This document shows, in pieces, positions 2,031 through 64,000 of a stretch of DNA of 64,000 nt (positions within the stretch are counted from its first letter, which is position 1; every line of letters starts with the position of its first letter). This stretch comes from Escherichia coli (GTDB lineage Bacteria > Pseudomonadota > Gammaproteobacteria > Enterobacterales > Enterobacteriaceae): NCBI RefSeq assembly GCF_003334315.1, contig NZ_QOWR01000008.1. One strand, 5' to 3'. The notes below the pieces were generated by a model. It was not told the DNA's origin. It saw only the letters and a program-made list of their open reading frames with translations, and searched no databases. The translations under genes were made by a program, and so were the position numbers.

Positions 2031-3764
2031 GTGAATATTCAGGCTCTTCTCTCAGAAAAAGTCCGTCAGGCCATGATTGCGGCAGGCGCGCCTGCGGATT
2101 GCGAACCGCAGGTTCGTCAGTCAGCAAAAGTTCAGTTCGGCGACTATCAGGCTAACGGCATGATGGCAGTTGCTAAAAAACTGGGTATGGCACCGCGACA
2201 ATTAGCAGAGCAGGTGCTGACTCATCTGGATCTTAACGGTATCGCCAGCAAAGTTGAGATCGCCGGTCCAGGCTTTATCAACATTTTCCTTGATCCGGCA
2301 TTCCTGGCTGAACATGTTCAGCAGGCGCTGGCGTCCGATCGTCTCGGTGTTGCTACGCCAGAAAAACAGACCATTGTGGTTGACTACTCTGCGCCAAACG
2401 TGGCGAAAGAGATGCATGTCGGTCACCTGCGCTCTACCATTATTGGTGACGCAGCAGTGCGTACTCTGGAGTTCCTCGGTCACAAAGTGATTCGCGCAAA
2501 CCACGTCGGCGACTGGGGCACTCAGTTCGGTATGCTGATTGCATGGCTGGAAAAGCAGCAGCAGGAAAACGCCGGTGAAATGGAGCTGGCTGACCTTGAA
2601 GGTTTCTACCGCGATGCGAAAAAGCATTACGATGAAGATGAAGAGTTCGCCGAGCGCGCACGTAACTACGTGGTAAAACTGCAAAGCGGTGACGAATATT
2701 TCCGCGAGATGTGGCGCAAACTGGTCGACATCACCATGACGCAGAACCAGATCACCTACGATCGTCTCAACGTGACGCTGACCCGTGATGACGTGATGGG
2801 CGAAAGCCTCTACAACCCGATGCTGCCAGGAATTGTGGCGGATCTCAAAGCCAAAGGTCTGGCAGTAGAAAGCGAAGGGGCGACCGTCGTATTCCTTGAT
2901 GAGTTTAAAAACAAGGAAGGCGAACCGATGGGCGTGATCATTCAGAAGAAAGATGGCGGCTATCTCTACACCACCACTGATATCGCCTGTGCGAAATATC
3001 GTTATGAAACACTGCATGCCGATCGCGTGCTGTATTACATCGACTCCCGTCAGCATCAACACCTGATGCAGGCATGGGCGATCGTCCGTAAAGCAGGCTA
3101 TGTACCGGAATCCGTACCGCTGGAACACCACATGTTCGGCATGATGCTGGGTAAAGACGGCAAACCGTTCAAAACCCGCGCGGGTGGTACAGTGAAACTG
3201 GCCGATCTGCTGGATGAAGCCCTGGAACGTGCACGCCGTCTGGTGGCAGAAAAGAACCCGGATATGCCAGCCGACGAGCTGGAAAAACTGGCTAACGCGG
3301 TTGGTATTGGTGCGGTGAAATATGCGGATCTCTCCAAAAACCGCACCACGGACTACATCTTCGACTGGGACAACATGCTGGCGTTTGAGGGTAATACCGC
3401 GCCATACATGCAGTATGCATACACGCGTGTATTGTCCGTGTTCCGTAAAGCAGAAATTGACGAAGAGCAACTGGCTGCAGCTCCGGTTATCATCCGTGAA
3501 GATCGTGAAGCGCAACTGGCAGCTCGCTTGCTGCAGTTTGAAGAAACCCTCACCGTGGTTGCCCGTGAAGGTACGCCGCATGTGATGTGTGCTTACCTGT
3601 ACGATCTGGCCGGTCTGTTCTCTGGCTTCTACGAGCACTGCCCGATCCTCAGCGCAGAAAACGAAGAAGTGCGTAACAGCCGTCTGAAACTGGCACAACT
3701 GACGGCGAAGACGCTGAAGCTGGGTCTGGATACGCTGGGTATTGAGACTGTAGAGCGTATGTAA
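2031..3764 (+). CDS. argS: Arginyl-tRNA synthetase
   Basis: 577-aa ORF with GTG start; [14 protein letters not shown]-terminus and class I synthetase HVGH motif. Confidence 0.97.
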
Positions 3765-3783
3765 TCGATTTTTCGTGAGAGTG

Positions 3784-3820
3784 AAGCCTGATCAGGGTTA
3801 CCTGATCAGGCTTTTTTATT
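3784..3820 (+). terminator. Rho-independent terminator of argS
   Basis: Hairpin gaagcctgatcagg/cctgatcaggctt followed by a T-run. Confidence 0.75.
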
Positions 3821-3940
3821 GCCATCTAAATGTATTCTGAAAATGGACATGCCATCGTTTTCTCACTGTTGGGTAAGAAGTCAGAAGCGTAATATTCGGC
3901 CCCAGGGAAACGATAACGGTTGAATTTAAGGAATACCGCA

Positions 3941-4429
3941 GTGTTTAAATTTCTTGTATTAACATTAGGCATTATCTCTTGCCAGGTTTACGCAGAAGAT
4001 ACGCTTATAGTAAACGACCATGACATTTCAGCCATCAAAGATTGTTGGCAAAAAAATTCAGATGATGATAGTGACATTAACGTGATCAAATCATGCCTGC
4101 GACAAGAATACAATCTCGTCGATGCGCAATTAAATAAAGCCTATGGTGAAGCTTATCGTTATATAGAACAAGTGCCACGCACAGGTGTAAAAAAACCTGA
4201 TACCGAACAACTTAACTTGCTTAAAAAATCACAGCGAGCCTGGCTGGATTTTAGGGACAAAGAATGTGAATTAATCCTTTCAAATGAGGATGTTCAGGAT
4301 TTAAGTGACCCTTATTCTGAATCAGAATGGCTCTCATGTATGATCATACAGACCAATACGCGAACTCGCCAGTTGCAGCTATACCGTAACTCTGAAGATT
4401 TTTATCCAAGCCCTTTGACAAGAGGATAA
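3941..4429 (+). CDS. yecT: YecT, predicted secreted protein of unknown function
   Basis: ORF 3920-4429; GTG at 3941 preferred because AAGGA lies 8 nt upstream; signal-peptide-like N-terminus. Confidence 0.75.
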   Translation: MFKFLVLTLGIISCQVYAEDTLIVNDHDISAIKDCWQKNSDDDSDINVIKSCLRQEYNLVDAQLNKAYGEAYRYIEQVPRTGVKKPDTEQLNLLKKSQRAWLDFRDKECELILSNEDVQDLSDPYSESEWLSCMIIQTNTRTRQLQLYRNSEDFYPSPLTRG

Positions 4430-4447
4430 TTCACATATTTTTGGCAT

Positions 4448-4489
4448 GTTTTGTTGCAAGCTATTCCTGATAAATAATTGCAACAAAAC
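4448..4489. other. Perfect 12-bp inverted repeat (gttttgttgcaa / ttgcaacaaaac) with 18-nt loop, between convergent yecT and flhE
   Basis: Read directly from sequence; T-run a few nt downstream on plus strand; possible terminator or protein-binding dyad. Confidence 0.4.
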
Positions 4490-4548
4490 ATCGAGCCTTT
4501 TTCACTGAGTTATTAAACATACTCGCGAGCGCGTAATTTTTTTGTCCT

Positions 4549-4941
4549 TCAGCGATAATTCACAATCACTTCATTACGTTGTACTTTCAGCGGCGGAATT
4601 AACCGCCCACCGCCAGGCACTTCCCAGATAAAGCGCAACGGTTCTGCTGCCGCTATACCGGAAAAGGCCACGGTGGTTCCGCTCTGCCCCTCTAATTCGA
4701 CACAACGAGATTGCGAACACAAGCGAACCCGCAGTCCTGAAGGTGTCGGGCCGATAAGCTGATAACGCCACGCTACCAGCGTCATCAATCCTGAAGCAGG
4801 TTGTCGCGTAGAAAGAGGCGCAGACGACATCGACTCACCGCGATGATTTAGCGTAATTCCTACACTACTTGCCTGCCACATCCCCTCCCCGGCGGCTTGC
4901 ACCAGCAGCGGAAACAATAATATTGCTAATAAGGTTCTCAT
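4549..4941 (-). CDS. flhE: Flagellar protein FlhE
   Basis: 130-aa ORF matching recalled FlhE; last gene of the flhBAE operon. Confidence 0.95.
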   Translation of the reverse strand: MRTLLAILLFPLLVQAAGEGMWQASSVGITLNHRGESMSSAPLSTRQPASGLMTLVAWRYQLIGPTPSGLRVRLCSQSRCVELEGQSGTTVAFSGIAAAEPLRFIWEVPGGGRLIPPLKVQRNEVIVNYR

Positions 4942-7019: not shown

Positions 7020-8160
7020 GGGTCGGTTTCTCGTTAATAAAATCCAGGGCTTCCGGCACCGGAAGATGAGTAGGTTGTACAGGGCGCTGTCCACCAGCCA
7101 GACGCCAGCGTTTCAGTTGCCAGACCCAGGCCAGCACTTCCGCCACCGCGGCGTACAGTTGACCCGGGATTTGTTGACCAATCTCCGCATGTCGATACAG
7201 CGCTCGCGCCAGCGGCGGCGCTTCAAGCGTCGGGACGTTATTTTCAGCGCCAATTTCACGAATGCGCAGCGCGACCAGCCCTGCACCTTTAGCGACCACT
7301 TTCGGTGCGCTCATTTTGTTTTCGTCATACTGCAACGCTACCGAATAGTGGGTCGGGTTATTGACAATGACATCCGCTTTCGGCACATCGGCCATCATCC
7401 GACGCCGTGCGGCAGCTCGCTGCATCTGACGGATCCGTCCTTTAACATGGGGGTCGCCTTCGCTTTGTTTGAACTCATCACGAATATCCTGCCGCGACAT
7501 TCGCAGCTTTTTCAGGTGGTTGAAGATTTGGAAAAAGACGTCAAATCCCACCATTGGAATGACACCAAGCACCACCAGCAGTGCGCATAGCCCTACCAAA
7601 TCCATCGCATTACCCATGGCGGTAATCGGAGACTCGGCCATTAAGCGCATCATCTGCGGCCAGTGATGCCAGAGAAAAAACCCCGTCACGCTGCCAACCA
7701 GGATGGTTTTCAAAATTGCTTTAAGCAACTCCGCGCCAGTCTGAGCCGAGAACATCCGTTTAATGCCCGGTAGCGGGTTGAGTTTGGAAAACTTCGGCTG
7801 CAAGGATTTGCCGCTAAATACCAGCCCTCCCAGCATGACCGGAGAAATGAGCGCCACCAGTACCACGCCGCTAATCAGTGGCAGCAGCGCCAGCATGGCT
7901 TCTCTGATCAGCAGAATAATCTGCCCGAGGATCAGATTCGGGTCTTTGATAATACTGTGATCAAAATGCAGCCCAGCGGAGAGCATGCCCGACAATCGAC
8001 GGGCCAGCGACACACCGCCAAACCAGATAACACTAACGCCCACCAGCAAAATCAGCAGTGAGGTCAGTTCACGGGAACGCGGGATTTGCCCCTCTTCCCG
8101 CGCTTTTTCTAGTCGGTGAGGTGTGGGGGCTTCTGTTTTGTCGTCGCTCTCGTCAGACAC
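7012..8160 (-). CDS. flhB: Flagellar export apparatus and substrate-specificity switch protein FlhB
   Basis: 382-aa ORF; conserved N-terminus and NPTH autocleavage motif present. Confidence 0.95.
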   Translation of the reverse strand: MSDESDDKTEAPTPHRLEKAREEGQIPRSRELTSLLILLVGVSVIWFGGVSLARRLSGMLSAGLHFDHSIIKDPNLILGQIILLIREAMLALLPLISGVVLVALISPVMLGGLVFSGKSLQPKFSKLNPLPGIKRMFSAQTGAELLKAILKTILVGSVTGFFLWHHWPQMMRLMAESPITAMGNAMDLVGLCALLVVLGVIPMVGFDVFFQIFNHLKKLRMSRQDIRDEFKQSEGDPHVKGRIRQMQRAAARRRMMADVPKADVIVNNPTHYSVALQYDENKMSAPKVVAKGAGLVALRIREIGAENNVPTLEAPPLARALYRHAEIGQQIPGQLYAAVAEVLAWVWQLKRWRLAGGQRPVQPTHLPVPEALDFINEKPTHE

Positions 8161-9016: not shown

Positions 9017-10470
<1,454 letters not shown>

Positions 10471-10472
10471 CG

Positions 10473-11333
10473 TTAATCCTTACTTAGCGCATACACCGTC
10501 TGACCACGCAGCGTGAAGCGGCGCTCAAGGTGGCTAAAGTTTTCAGAGTGACCCGCAAACAGCAATCCGTCGGGTTTAAGGAGCGGAACAAAGCGGCGCA
10601 AAATCTCCTGCTGGGTAGTTTGATCGAAGTAGATCATGACGTTACGACAGAAGATCGCATCAAACGGCCCCGGCACGGTGTACTGTTTCGCCAGTAGATT
10701 CAGCGGGGCAAAATCAACATAGTTCGCCAGCTCCTGACGCACGCGTACCAGCCCTTCATGCGGCCCCGTCCCTCGCATGAAATACCGTTGCAGTTGCTGC
10801 GGCGTCAGGTTTTTCAACTCTTCATGGCGATAGATACCGCTTCTGGCTTTTTCCAGCACTTCGGTGTCGATATCACTGGCAAACACTTTCCAGCGTCCGG
10901 GCGCGGTGCCCAATGTGTCAGCCAGCGTCATCGCAATGCTGTACGGCTCTTCGCCGGTCGAAGCCGCCGCGCTCCATACGCGATACTCGCCAGAACGGCG
11001 ACGTGCGTGATCCGCGAGCAGAGGGAAATGATGTGCCTCACGGAAAAATGCCGTCAGATTCGTGGTCAGCGAATTGATAAACGCCTGCCACTCACCGCTG
11101 TGCTGATTAGATTCCAGCAAGTTCAGATAATGACCGAAATCCGTCAGTCCCAGCGAACGCAAACGACGAACCAGTCGGTTGTAAACCATGTCGCGTTTAT
11201 GGTCAGCCAGAACGATCCCGGCTCGTTGATAGATCAATTGACTTATCCGCCGAAAATGCGCGTCGGAAAGCGCCAGGCGCTCGGTCATCTGTAACAATAA
11301 AGACGTTTGCCCACAGGGCAGAGATGAAGTCAT
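10473..11333 (-). CDS. cheR: Chemotaxis methyltransferase CheR
   Basis: 286-aa ORF matching recalled CheR. Confidence 0.95.
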
Positions 11334-20166: not shown

Positions 20167-20427
20167 TATTCCCACCCAGAATAACCAACTTTATTTTTAT
20201 GCGGTTTCACCGCACCCCGTGATGTCGCCGGGAAGCCCCGGTAAAAAATAATTAGCATTAGAATAGTTGCGATAAGCTGCAATAAGCAGAACCACCTTTT
20301 TGGTTTAATATGTCCTTACAAATAGAAATGGGTCTTTACACTTATCTAAGATTTTTCCTAAATCGACGCAACTGTACTCGTCACTACACGCACATACAAC
20401 GGAGGGGGGCTGCGATTTTCAATAATG

Positions 20428-20443
20428 TGTGATGCAGATCACA
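20428..20443. promoter_or_regulatory. CRP binding site in the flhDC class 1 promoter region
   Basis: tgtgatgcagatcaca fits the TGTGA-N6-TCACA CRP consensus at the expected distance upstream of flhD. Confidence 0.7.
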
Positions 20444-20945
20444 CAAAACACTCAATTACTTAACATAAATGTATAAGTCATACTTTTGTTTTGGGTGTAT
20501 TTCAATCTGTTAAAAAGTTTTTCGCTACGCTAGCAAGCAAAAATGAAACAGGAATAATCGAAATGGGATGTTGCGCACAGTCAAAATAACTCACCGTAAA
20601 TAATCATCTGCTATAAATAATCACTTTCATTCAATACCAGATAAGCTATTTTTAAACAGACACTTACCGCACAACAAACTAATTAAATACAAAGAAAGGC
20701 AACAATCAACTTAATGTTGATGAAATGTTTTACATATATTAACCACTTGTTTAATGCGGAGAATCAGTACACTATTTTCTTATAATTACATTTGAAATTA
20801 TATGATCACCGGGAGTGATTGATTAATTGTCTTTACTAATAATCAGACTAATATTTACCTGTTTGACCGAGTTGGGATTGCGTCGTTTCTCCATTAGGAG
20901 TAAAGCTTTAATGTCACCTGAAGTTCACAGAATAAGGAACAGGTT

Positions 20946-42263: not shown

Positions 42264-42983
42264 TTATAACTTACCCAGTTTAGTGCGTAACCGTTTAATA
42301 GCCTGGCTGTGTAACTGACTGACCCGCGATTCCCCGACCTCCAGCACTGCACCAATCTCTTTGAGATTCAGCTCTTCCTGGTAATAGAGGGTTAATACCA
42401 GTTTTTCGCGCTCCGGCAACGTTTCGATGGCTTCCATCACCCGCTGGCGCAGATTATTGTCCAGCAGTTGTTGTAGCGGGTTTTCTCGCTGATGATCATC
42501 AGTAACCAGTTCGATGCTATCGCCGTGCTCTTCGCGCCACTCATCGTAGGAGAAGAGCTGGCTGTTATTGGTGTCGAGCAACATTTGGCGATAATCGGCA
42601 ATATCGATCCCTAAACGTTCCGCTACCTCAGTTTCCGTGGCGTTGCGGCCAAGTTCCTGCTCCAGTTGCCCTATTGCCTGTGCCACTTCACGCGCGTTGC
42701 GTCGCACGCTGCGCGGCACCCAGTCACGGCTGCGAAGTTCATCCAGCATAGCGCCACGGATACGCTGCACTGCGTAAGTTGTAAATGCCGTTCCTTGTAG
42801 GGCGTCATAGCGTTCGACGGCATTAAGTAACCCAATGCCGCCCGCCTGTAGCAGATCGTCAAGTTCCACGCTCGCGGGCAGTCGAACCTGCAGGCGCAAT
42901 GCTTCGTGACGCACCAGCGGGACATAACGCTGCCACAGCGAGTGTTTATCCATTACACCTTCAGCGGTATAGAGTGAATTCAC
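42264..42983 (-). CDS. fliA: Flagellar sigma factor sigma-28 (FliA)
   Basis: 239-aa ORF with sigma-70 region 2 and 4 motifs; matches recalled FliA. Confidence 0.96.
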   Translation of the reverse strand: MNSLYTAEGVMDKHSLWQRYVPLVRHEALRLQVRLPASVELDDLLQAGGIGLLNAVERYDALQGTAFTTYAVQRIRGAMLDELRSRDWVPRSVRRNAREVAQAIGQLEQELGRNATETEVAERLGIDIADYRQMLLDTNNSQLFSYDEWREEHGDSIELVTDDHQRENPLQQLLDNNLRQRVMEAIETLPEREKLVLTLYYQEELNLKEIGAVLEVGESRVSQLHSQAIKRLRTKLGKL

Positions 42984-43008
42984 GATAAACAGCCCTGCGT
43001 TATATGAG

Positions 43009-43016
43009 TTATCGGC
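43009..43016 (-). promoter_or_regulatory. Candidate sigma-28 -10 element (GCCGATAA) of the autoregulated fliA promoter
   Basis: Minus strand GCCGATAA about 25 nt upstream of the fliA start; the -35 is a poor match. Confidence 0.5.
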
Positions 43017-43102
43017 ATGATTATCCGTTTCTGCAGGGTTTTTAATCGGACGATTAGTGGGTGAAATGAGGGGTTATTTGGGGGTTACCGGTAAATTGCG
43101 GG

Positions 43103-43128
43103 CAGAAAAAACCCCGCCGTTGGCGGGG
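43103..43128 (-). terminator. Rho-independent terminator at the end of the fliC 3-prime UTR
   Basis: Minus strand hairpin ccccgcc-aacg-gcgggg followed by a U-run. Confidence 0.75.
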
Positions 43129-43149
43129 AAGCACGTTGCTGACAAATTA

Positions 43150-43260
43150 CCATTCATGTTGCCGGATGCGGCGTAACGCCTTATCCGGCCTACAAAAATC
43201 TGCAAATTCAATAAATTGCAATTCACCTTGTAGGCCTGATAAGCACAGCGCACCAGGCAA
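43150..43260. repeat. REP/BIME palindromic units within the fliC 3-prime UTR
   Basis: gccggatgcggcgtaacgccttatccggcctac and ggcctgataagcacagcgcaccaggc match REP consensus in inverted orientation. Confidence 0.75.
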
Positions 43261-43301
43261 TTTGGCGTTGCCGTCAGTCTCAGTTAATCAGGTTACGACG
43301 A

Positions 43302-44612
43302 TTAACCCTGCAGCAGAGACAGAACCTGCTGCGGTACCTGGTTGGCTTTTGCCAGTACGGAGTTACCGGCCTGCTGGATAATCTGCGCTTTCGACATGTT
43401 GGACACTTCGGTCGCATAGTCGGCGTCCTGAATACGGGACTGCGCTTCAGACAGGTTGGTAGTGGTGTTGTTCAGGTTGGTGACTGCGGAATCCAGACGG
43501 TTTTGCACCGCACCGAGGGAGGAGCGGAAAGTATCAACCTGTGCAATCGCTTTGTCTAAAAGTGCCAGTGGATCAGCAGAAGAAGCCCCTGAGAACTGTG
43601 CAGTCGGTTTTGCTGTTGATAATTCAACAACAACTTTATTATCTGTTGCTTTTGCCGCAGTATTATCATCAAGTGCCTTTGAAACCGTTGTAGCGTAGTT
43701 TTTACCTTGGAATGTTACATATCCCGCAGCCGAGCCGTCAGAGTCAGCGGCAACTTTAATCAGTTGATCTTTCTGAGTAGCCGCAGTCGTTAGTCCATTA
43801 TCGGTGTCTGTGTATTCGACATCGGCTTTATTCAACGTGACTTTGCCGTCTGTATGATTAATCGACGCGGAGTAGAAATCATTGCCGGATTGAACGACGA
43901 ACTGTGATGTAGCAGCCCCTTTCGCATCCAGAGTGTTGTGTAACGTCAGGCTAGAAACATCGACTGTTTTACCTGTCGCAGTAGTCAGATCTTTCGCAAC
44001 AGCAGTGAAATCAACACCAACAGGTTTTGCCCCGGCGGCACCGGTAATTTGAGTAATGGAATCACTAACGTTAAGTGACTGACCCGAAACGGAGAAACCG
44101 TTCAGTCCTAATGTAGAAGAGTCAATCTTCTGCAAATCAATGCTAATAGTCTGCCCATCATTCGCGCCAACCTGAATCTTCATCGAACCATCTTTCGCCA
44201 GCACATTCACGCCGTTGAACTGGGTCTGACCGGAAACGCGATCAATTTCATCCAGACGGGATTTGATTTCGTCCTGGATTGAAGACAGGTCAGAATCAGA
44301 GTTAGTCCCGGTCGTCGCCTGAACGGTCAACTCACGCACACGCTGCAAGTTGTTGTTGATTTCAGACAGCGCGCCTTCAGTGGTCTGCGCCAGAGAGATA
44401 CCGTCGTTGGCGTTACGTGCGGCCTGAGTCAGACCTTTGATGTTAGAGGTGAAGCGGTTAGCAATCGCCTGGCCCGCAGCGTCATCTTTAGCGCTGTTAA
44501 TGCGCAGACCAGAAGAGAGGCGCTCGATAGAAGTCGACAGCGCAGACTGGTTTTTGTTGATGTTGTTCTGAGTGATCAGCGAGAGGCTGTTGGTATTAAT
44601 GACTTGTGCCAT
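43302..44612 (-). CDS. fliC: Flagellin FliC (H antigen), 436 aa, non-K-12 central domain
   Basis: ORF 43302-44633; start moved to MAQVINTNSLSLITQNN; N and C termini conserved, central region divergent and shorter than the 498-aa K-12 protein. Confidence 0.95.
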   Translation of the reverse strand: MAQVINTNSLSLITQNNINKNQSALSTSIERLSSGLRINSAKDDAAGQAIANRFTSNIKGLTQAARNANDGISLAQTTEGALSEINNNLQRVRELTVQATTGTNSDSDLSSIQDEIKSRLDEIDRVSGQTQFNGVNVLAKDGSMKIQVGANDGQTISIDLQKIDSSTLGLNGFSVSGQSLNVSDSITQITGAAGAKPVGVDFTAVAKDLTTATGKTVDVSSLTLHNTLDAKGAATSQFVVQSGNDFYSASINHTDGKVTLNKADVEYTDTDNGLTTAATQKDQLIKVAADSDGSAAGYVTFQGKNYATTVSKALDDNTAAKATDNKVVVELSTAKPTAQFSGASSADPLALLDKAIAQVDTFRSSLGAVQNRLDSAVTNLNNTTTNLSEAQSRIQDADYATEVSNMSKAQIIQQAGNSVLAKANQVPQQVLSLLQG

Positions 44613-44688
44613 GATTTCTTTTCCTGTTTTCAAGTCTACGGTTTAAGTATTGGGCTTCCACCCTTCGGCTTCGTCGCCGTCAACCCTG

Positions 44689-44715
44689 TTATCGTCTGGT
44701 CACTCACAACCTTTA
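44689..44715 (-). promoter_or_regulatory. Sigma-28 promoter of fliC
   Basis: Minus strand reads TAAAGGTT, 11-nt spacer, GACGATAA, about 75 nt upstream of fliC. Confidence 0.8.
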
Positions 44716-44788
44716 GAATTTTTTTCTAGCGGTCGAAATACTCCCCTTCCTCGTTGCTGTTCGTGCCATTAAGGCAAAAAATAAATCG

Positions 44789-44815
44789 TAAACTTTACCC
44801 CGCTTACGCCGATAA
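44789..44815 (+). promoter_or_regulatory. Sigma-28 promoter of the fliDST operon
   Basis: Plus strand reads TAAACTTT, 11-nt spacer, GCCGATAA, 45 nt upstream of fliD. Confidence 0.85.
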
Positions 44816-44859
44816 CCCCGGTATTCGTTCTATACACGTCGCATGATTAAGGAAACTAT

Positions 44860-46275
44860 ATGGCTAGTATTTCAACGCTTGGGGTTGGGTCGGGGCTGAA
44901 CTTAAGCAGCATCCTTGACAGTCTGGAGGCGGCAGAAAAATCTACCCTGACGCCGATATCAAAACAGCAAAGCTCTTACACCGCGAAACTGAGCGCCTAC
45001 GGGACGCTGAAAAGTGCACTAGAGAGTTTCCAGACAGCCAACACAGCACTGAATAAAGCCGATTTATTTACCGCCACCTCAACCACCAGCAGTTCATCGG
45101 CTTTCAGCGCCACCACCACGGGCAGCGCGATTGCTGGGAAATACACCATTAGCGTTAGCCAACTGGCGCAGGCACAGACGCTGACAACAAAAAATAGTCA
45201 AAAAGACAGTAAAGCCGCCATCGCCACCAGCGATAGCGTACTAACCATCCAGCAAGGTGGCGGTAAAGATCCGGTCACGATTGATATCAGCGCGGCTAAC
45301 TCGTCACTTTCCGGCATTCGCGATGCCATTAACAACGCCAAAGCTGGTGTCAGCGCCAGTATCATCCATGTGGGTAACGGCGAGTATCGTCTGTCCATCA
45401 CTGCTAACGATACGGGCAGCGATAACGCTATGAAACTTAGCGTCAGCGGCGACAGCGCCCTGGAAAGTTTTATGGGTTACAACGGAACGTCGGGTGATAG
45501 CAGCAATGGCATGATTGAAAGCGTCACTGCGCAAAACGCCAAACTGACAGTCAATAACGTTGAGATTGAAAACAGCAGTAACACTATCAGCGACGCGCTG
45601 GAAGATATCACCCTCAACCTGAATGACGTCACCACCGGTAATCAGACACTGACCATCAGTAAAGACACATCCAAAGCTGAAAATGCGGTTAAAACGTGGG
45701 TGGATGCCTATAACTCATTGCAGGATACGTTCAGCAGCTTAACCAAATACACCGCTGTCGATGCCGGAGCAGAGAGTCAGGACTCCAGCAATGGCGCATT
45801 ACTCGGTGACTCCACACTGCGTACCATCCAGACTCAGCTTAAAACCTTGCTCGCCAATACTCACAGCAGTTCAAACTATAAAACGCTGGCACAGATTGGC
45901 ATTACCAGCGATGCCAGTACCGGCAAGCTGGAAATCGCGACCGACAAACTGCAAACGGCGCTAAAAAAAGATGCCGCTGGCATCAGTGAAATGTTTATAG
46001 GTGACGGTAAAAGTACAGGGGTAACCACCGGCATTAGTAGCAACCTAACCAGTTGGCTCTCTTCCACCGGGATAATCCAGGCCGCAAAAGATGGCGTCAG
46101 CAAAACGCTGAATAATTTGACCGACCAGTACAACGCAGCCAGTGAGCGTATCGATACCTTAATGACGCGCTATAAAGCCCAGTTCACCCAATTAGATGTG
46201 TTAATGAACTCGCTTAACTCCACCAGTAGCTATCTGACACAGCAATTCGACACCTCAAATAGCAACTCGAAATAA
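44860..46275 (+). CDS. fliD: Flagellar filament cap protein FliD
   Basis: 471-aa ORF MASISTLGVGSGL...; clearly FliD but with many substitutions relative to the recalled K-12 protein. Confidence 0.94.
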   Translation: MASISTLGVGSGLNLSSILDSLEAAEKSTLTPISKQQSSYTAKLSAYGTLKSALESFQTANTALNKADLFTATSTTSSSSAFSATTTGSAIAGKYTISVSQLAQAQTLTTKNSQKDSKAAIATSDSVLTIQQGGGKDPVTIDISAANSSLSGIRDAINNAKAGVSASIIHVGNGEYRLSITANDTGSDNAMKLSVSGDSALESFMGYNGTSGDSSNGMIESVTAQNAKLTVNNVEIENSSNTISDALEDITLNLNDVTTGNQTLTISKDTSKAENAVKTWVDAYNSLQDTFSSLTKYTAVDAGAESQDSSNGALLGDSTLRTIQTQLKTLLANTHSSSNYKTLAQIGITSDASTGKLEIATDKLQTALKKDAAGISEMFIGDGKSTGVTTGISSNLTSWLSSTGIIQAAKDGVSKTLNNLTDQYNAASERIDTLMTRYKAQFTQLDVLMNSLNSTSSYLTQQFDTSNSNSK

Positions 46276-51475: not shown

Positions 51476-51868
51476 TAAGCCTGGAGATTATTGATCAACA
51501 ATACTGCGTCATAAGAAATCTCTATTAGACAAAGTAGACGCTCCTTCCACATGCGCCACAAGAAACCTCTATTCCAGTGACACAATTACGCCTGATTATT
51601 TCCCTAGCCCGGAATATGAATAAAAACATCAACAAAGATTAAATTATTCAAACGTTACTGTTGCGTCTGCGGTCGTAGCAACATCCGACGTGGTGATGAG
51701 TGTTAAAAGAGACACTCTGATGTTCAGAGGGGTTATCGCGTTTACGGATCGTGGATGGCAGAAAACTTTCAGGATCAGGTATCCATTTTAAACCAGAAAT
51801 AGGGTGAGTTTGCCCCATCCATGCCCCACGCGGGCAGATGGGATGTAATTACCAACAGGTTACAAAAC

Positions 51869-63998: not shown

Positions 63999-64000
63999 CC

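Follow-up and report, generated by a model that had tools for sequence, protein, structure and literature searches.

The gene on the minus strand at positions 43302 to 44612 of the 64,000-nucleotide stretch of DNA analysed here (the window) is, with a probability of about 93%, an H5 allele of fliC, which encodes the structural protein of the flagellar filament, and it belongs to a fliC-fliD cassette that is unlike that of K-12 through homologous recombination. The H5 allele is already catalogued and the mechanism of H-antigen replacement is well known, and the finding is neither new nor the source of a new question. The fliC-fliD locus illustrates the replacement of an H antigen cleanly, with both edges of the block mapped, and H5, as the H type of the source strain judged by the gene, serves in-silico serotyping and epidemiology.

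The minus-strand open reading frame that ends at 43302 encodes, from the ATG at 44612, a protein of 436 aa (plus stop) with the N-terminus MAQVINTN. A longer frame of 443 aa, present in the mechanical ORF list, is the product of an upstream in-frame TTG at 44633 only. The original prediction had placed a 436-aa flagellin here, which was confirmed by the ORF from the ATG and by the identical 1311-nt coding sequence in RefSeq, labelled 'FliC/FljB family flagellin'. The product matched Flagellin_N (Pfam PF00669) over residues 5-140 (E = 1.3e-46) and Flagellin_C (Pfam PF00700) over residues 350-434 (E = 1e-31), Pfam giving nothing between the two in the 436-aa protein, and it scored above the cut-offs of the NCBIfam models NF005953 (624.7 bits, cut-off 619) and NF005294 (515.6, cut-off 387). 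The position of the gene is also that of fliC, between fliA and fliD, pointing away from fliDST and preceded by a sigma-28 promoter motif, in synteny with K-12. The closest solved structures by sequence were the filaments of E. coli H6, K-12, and H7 and those of Salmonella.

When the protein was compared with FliC of K-12 MG1655 (498 aa, a length given correctly in the original prediction), 137/140 residues were identical over positions 1-140 and 29/40 over positions 141-180. Identity fell to 0-7 per 20 residues over positions 181-340 and returned to 75 of 76 residues over positions 361-436. Since these segment identities agree with it, the predicted division into about 175 conserved N-terminal and about 90 conserved C-terminal residues is accurate. 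FliC is made of a conserved N-terminal D0/D1 part almost identical in protein to K-12 (residues 1-175; 44088-44612, minus strand), a variable surface part, D2/D3, that is the H5 determinant (residues 176-345; 43578-44087, minus strand), and a conserved C-terminal D1/D0 part (residues 346-436; 43305-43577, minus strand). The centre had been described as much shorter than the K-12 centre and unrelated to it. It is indeed shorter, but by 62 aa (about 170 aa vs about 233 aa), at an identity of ~20-25%. The lack of relationship holds for the DNA, for which blastn gave no alignment with K-12 over 43530-44121 of fliC, but not for the protein, which BLASTP could still align weakly over a local stretch of 78 aa (28% identity, pairwise E = 8e-5).

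In DNA, the conserved N-terminal part is 88.4-88.5% identical to K-12 (88.4% over the first 491 nt of fliC, which can be aligned), with an almost identical protein, vs 99% identical to the H5 strain IMT5155. The final 270 nt of fliC are 89.6% identical to K-12, and the blastn-aligned piece at 43302-43529 holds 9 mismatches in 228 nt. Since the conserved 5' part differs from K-12 by ~11.5% in DNA with the protein almost unchanged, the changes in this part are nearly all synonymous; judged from the sequences, they reflect a long-standing synonymous divergence of separate allele lineages rather than fast evolution at this place.

AlphaFold predicted a beta-rich centre, mostly strands with one helix (pLDDT ~80-92 at residues ~180-310), within a poor model of the whole protein (pLDDT 65, pTM 0.41) that is confident for the central domain only. 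A Foldseek comparison of this model with the PDB returned flagellins with low TM-scores and, because the global packing of the model is wrong, it says nothing specific on the fold of D2/D3. Searched by sequence against solved structures, the centre alone matched no flagellin and gave two chance-level matches (E above 0.3), and in a protein database it retrieved mainly fragments, without a full-length H5 cluster. Relatives of the H5-type central domain occur at 43-89% identity as metagenomic fragments, and a protein named Enterobacter intestinihominis FliC is 80% identical to the first half of the H5 centre. There is thereby a hint that the variable-region family of this centre may be common to several genera.

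The conserved termini of flagellins make up the D0/D1 core of the filament, involved in polymerisation and export and carrying the surfaces recognised by TLR5. By analogy with established flagellin structures, the termini of the window's FliC (about 1-175 and about 346-436) would form, as helices, the D0/D1 filament core, and the centre of 170 residues would be an outward-facing domain seen by antibodies as the H5 antigen. Transcription of the gene would start at a class 3 promoter of the FliA (sigma-28) type, run in the direction opposite to fliD-fliS-fliT, and stop at an intrinsic terminator. A pattern search detected a sigma-28 (FliA) type motif, TAAA-N15-GACGATAA, at 44689-44715 on the minus strand, which is the putative fliC promoter given the known class 3 promoter of fliC. 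A second motif, TAAA-N15-GCCGATAA, is a perfect match at 44789-44815 on the plus strand, 45 nt upstream of the fliD ATG (44860). With one mismatch allowed, the search found 7 such motifs in the window vs 0.25 expected by chance. The intrinsic terminator of fliC, CCCCGCC-AAC-GGCGGGG then a T run, was located at 43106-43128 on the minus strand by a terminator scan and by its sequence. The fliC 3'UTR (43105-43299, minus strand), placed by K-12 alignment as the equivalent of the K-12 FliX sRNA region, has 16 mismatches to K-12 and contains REP-like repeats (match at 43160-43259); Rfam returned no family for it.

From these sequences, the source strain would be predicted to express H5. It is also conceivable, if unlikely, that the strain carries fliC-H5 without displaying it as its H antigen, being non-motile or else repressing fliC and using a flagellin encoded at another locus. 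Non-motile isolates and the flk/fll/flm/fln loci do exist in E. coli (PMC7018530; PMC3378880), the visible part of this genome is 64 kb, so that flkA, fllA, flmA, or flnA could lie outside it, and the IS1 found upstream of flhD in MG1655 is absent here. Against this, all the flagellar, motor, and chemotaxis genes of the window are intact full-length ORFs (flhDC, motAB, the che genes, flhBAE, fliA, fliZ, fliC, fliD, fliS, fliT, and fliE to fliR), and fliC has its sigma-28 promoter motif. More generally, every K-12 gene with a counterpart in the window is full-length and intact. In another H5-genotype strain, the ST1193 strain MDBZ1340, the annotation gives fliA (10109-10828) as a pseudogene interrupted by a stop codon, and that strain may therefore be non-motile.

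The allele is widespread. Many RefSeq E. coli genomes, of human, poultry, pig, frog, and seawater origin, carry the 1311-nt fliC at 100% identity over its whole length, and its central 531 nt were found at 99.4-100% identity in 309 of 5426 complete genomes (about 6%). All 309 matches of the centre among these 5426 genomes are at 99% or more, and no second cluster of lower identity was seen. The H5 typing is based on identity to strains that others labelled H5: the avian pathogenic strain (APEC) IMT5155 is O2:K1:H5 according to its genome paper (PMC4232414), and fliC-H5 was reported in all of the ST1193 clone (PMC8602892). For strain HS30-1, the literature searched yielded no serotype. Over the whole protein, the window FliC differs from that of IMT5155 by 3 aa and from that of an ST1193 strain by 2 aa; over the centre it is 99.6% identical to both at the nucleotide level (2 nt in 512), with 2 aa differences. 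Because of this near-identity to IMT5155 (O2:K1:H5) and ST1193 (fliC-H5), we assigned the allele to fliC-H5. The original prediction that this fliC defines a non-K-12 (non-H48) H type thus stands, and with the 309 genomes that carry a near-identical centre the type can probably be named as H5.

H5 and H56 are a related pair, one of four pairs of E. coli H types with related variable regions (PMC7018530), and the allele could in principle be H56 or another close serological relative of H5. The two members of this pair, however, align poorly over some segments of their variable regions (PMC7018530). The near-identity of the window's centre to H5-labelled strains across the variable region (2 nt in 512) makes H56 very improbable, as does the clustering of 309/309 centre matches at 99% or more without a second cluster. 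We therefore retain H5.

To place the difference from K-12 along the locus, mismatches to MG1655 were mapped. No mismatch was found at 42466-43088. Mismatches are dense from 43089, just past the fliC terminator, up to 46291, the base at which fliS begins, and beyond it their density is back to the background of about 1 per 50 nt. This strongly divergent block of ~3.2 kb contains the fliC 3'UTR, fliC, the intergenic region with the divergent sigma-28 promoter motifs, and all of fliD. The latter (44860-46275, plus strand) encodes the filament cap, a protein of 471 aa identified by the NCBIfam equivalog NF005955 (684.5 bits), and is of a non-K-12 class, 73.1-73.3% identical to the K-12 gene in nucleotides and 80.1% in amino acids (471 vs 468 aa). 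In contrast, the genes flanking the block are 98-99.4% identical to K-12 (fliZ 98.9%, fliA 99.4%, fliS 98.3%, fliT 98.4%, and amyA 98.3%). The per-gene comparison had been proposed with the original prediction; the breakpoints, at ~43,089 and ~46,291, are those set by the mismatch map. The claim that fliC had been exchanged by recombination relative to K-12 was thereby upheld and can be extended to the 3'UTR, the promoter region, and the whole of fliD. A block that is so abruptly bounded, between flanks at 98-99.4%, points to allelic replacement and not to divergence in place. The comparison thus supports a replacement of the fliC-fliD block relative to K-12, and being one of two sequences, it allows the recipient to be either lineage.

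Homologous recombination is the established way in which E. coli and Salmonella switch their H antigens, and the exchange of flagellin genes has been in the textbooks since the 1990s. Here, on the simplest account, crossovers in or beside conserved flanking sequence would have given, in one or more events, a fliC-fliD cassette different from that of K-12 (H48). Hu and Reeves described serotype switches in which the recombined segment ends within the conserved C1/C2 regions (PMC7018530).

The cassette was also compared with its counterparts in two H5 strains of phylogroup B2, IMT5155 and ST1193. Over 43,576-45,250 we counted 12 mismatches in 1675 nt (99.3% identity), vs 98.4% in the left flank and 97.4% in the right flank, so that the cassette would have moved between phylogroups later than the backgrounds diverged. 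This indicates that the H5 cassette is probably younger than the backgrounds that carry it. The C-terminal conserved part of fliC (43,302-43,575) is 95.3% identical to IMT5155 and 98.9% identical to ST1193, the centre being at 99.6% to both, which suggests that an additional crossover may have occurred inside fliC in one H5 lineage.

The fliD gene of the window is 97.5-97.8% identical in nucleotides to that of H5 and H4 strains of phylogroup B2. Its class, at 95% identity or more, is present in 1324 of the 5426 complete genomes and was seen with H5 and with H4, in H4 strains such as JJ1887 and O104:H4. The K-12 class, ~73% identical to that of the window, is present in 3189 of the 5426 and was seen with H48, H7, H1, and H12. 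In about 790 further complete genomes, for example O6:H16, a third class was found, which matches the K-12 fliD over 126 nt only. The fliD genes fall into these three deeply separated classes, and it is possible, and we propose it tentatively, that the unit exchanged at this locus is the fliC-fliD cassette, not fliC alone. If the cap classes were obligately paired with flagellin types, this would speak for a co-adaptation of cap and filament or for entire cassettes having been acquired long ago from other species. A limited search of the literature found no description of allelic classes of fliD in E. coli, only papers on Salmonella and Bacillus. That fliD travels with fliC, in discrete classes, is a mildly interesting by-product of this work.

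The remaining explanation of the difference from K-12, an accelerated divergence of fliC in place under diversifying selection and without exchange, would agree with the immune and phage selection acting on flagellin surface domains (PMC7018530), but it is hardly tenable in view of the nearly all synonymous difference of ~11.5% in the 5' DNA of fliC, the 27% nucleotide difference in fliD, the sharp edges of a block whose flanks differ by 1-2%, the recurrence of the cassette, at 99% identity or more, in B2 strains that are only distantly related, and the discreteness of the fliD classes, no fliD at 80% to 95% identity having been found among the complete genomes examined (n=5426).

The replaced block lies in a wider zone of difference from K-12. 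The divergence is 0.1-0.2% from ~8 kb to ~26,560, inside araF, and 1.1-2.2% from there to the end of the window at 64,000. As the divergence stays at the higher level beyond ~26,560, the fliC-fliD block is nested in a tract of at least 37 kb. Several other differences from K-12 were observed in the window. Small divergent patches are located at 3,528-4,633 and 7,411-7,945. The window starts (1-~203) inside an IS1 whose end is 99% identical to the K-12 IS1H and which abuts the micL/cutC region; torY is outside the window. The IS1-micL junction was not found as one piece at 100% among complete genomes. The closest strains for the junction query included the seawater isolates DAM and ANT, with ~39 matching places, most of them presumably IS1 copies. 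The IS1H located upstream of flhDC in MG1655 is absent here (20,167-20,945), the K-12 flanks being joined at ~20,464-20,471. Between yedK and fliE (51,476-51,868), K-12 yedL, the yedN pseudogene, and the intG prophage remnant (~2.2 kb) are absent and ~390 bp are left; in B2 strains this site holds a porin gene that resembles ompC. Of the flanking genes, the adjacent yedK diverges most from K-12 (95.1% identity).

The H5 locus of the window can be set beside four known systems. With the closest, IMT5155 (O2:K1:H5) and ST1193 (O75:H5), it shares the 436-aa FliC, with 2-3 aa differences, the locus, and the linked 471-aa fliD product, but their backbone is that of phylogroup B2, whereas that of the window is K-12-like (phylogroup-A-like). 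The fliC-H4 cassette of the ST131 strain JJ1887 has the same fliD class (97.8% identical in nucleotides to the window and 99.6% to a B2 H5 strain) but encodes a FliC of 349 aa with another centre, the conserved 5' part of its gene being 91% identical to H5. K-12 FliC (H48, 498 aa; filament structure 8cxm) has in common with the window the locus, the neighbours, the promoter type, and a near-identical D0/D1 protein, whereas the window's centre is 62 aa shorter, the conserved 5' DNA is at 88%, and the linked fliD DNA is at 73%. Salmonella FliC/FljB (structures 1ucu, 3a5x, and 9gnz) share the family and the D0/D1 architecture with the window's flagellin but differ in their central domains and in phase variation, the window holding no partner for it.
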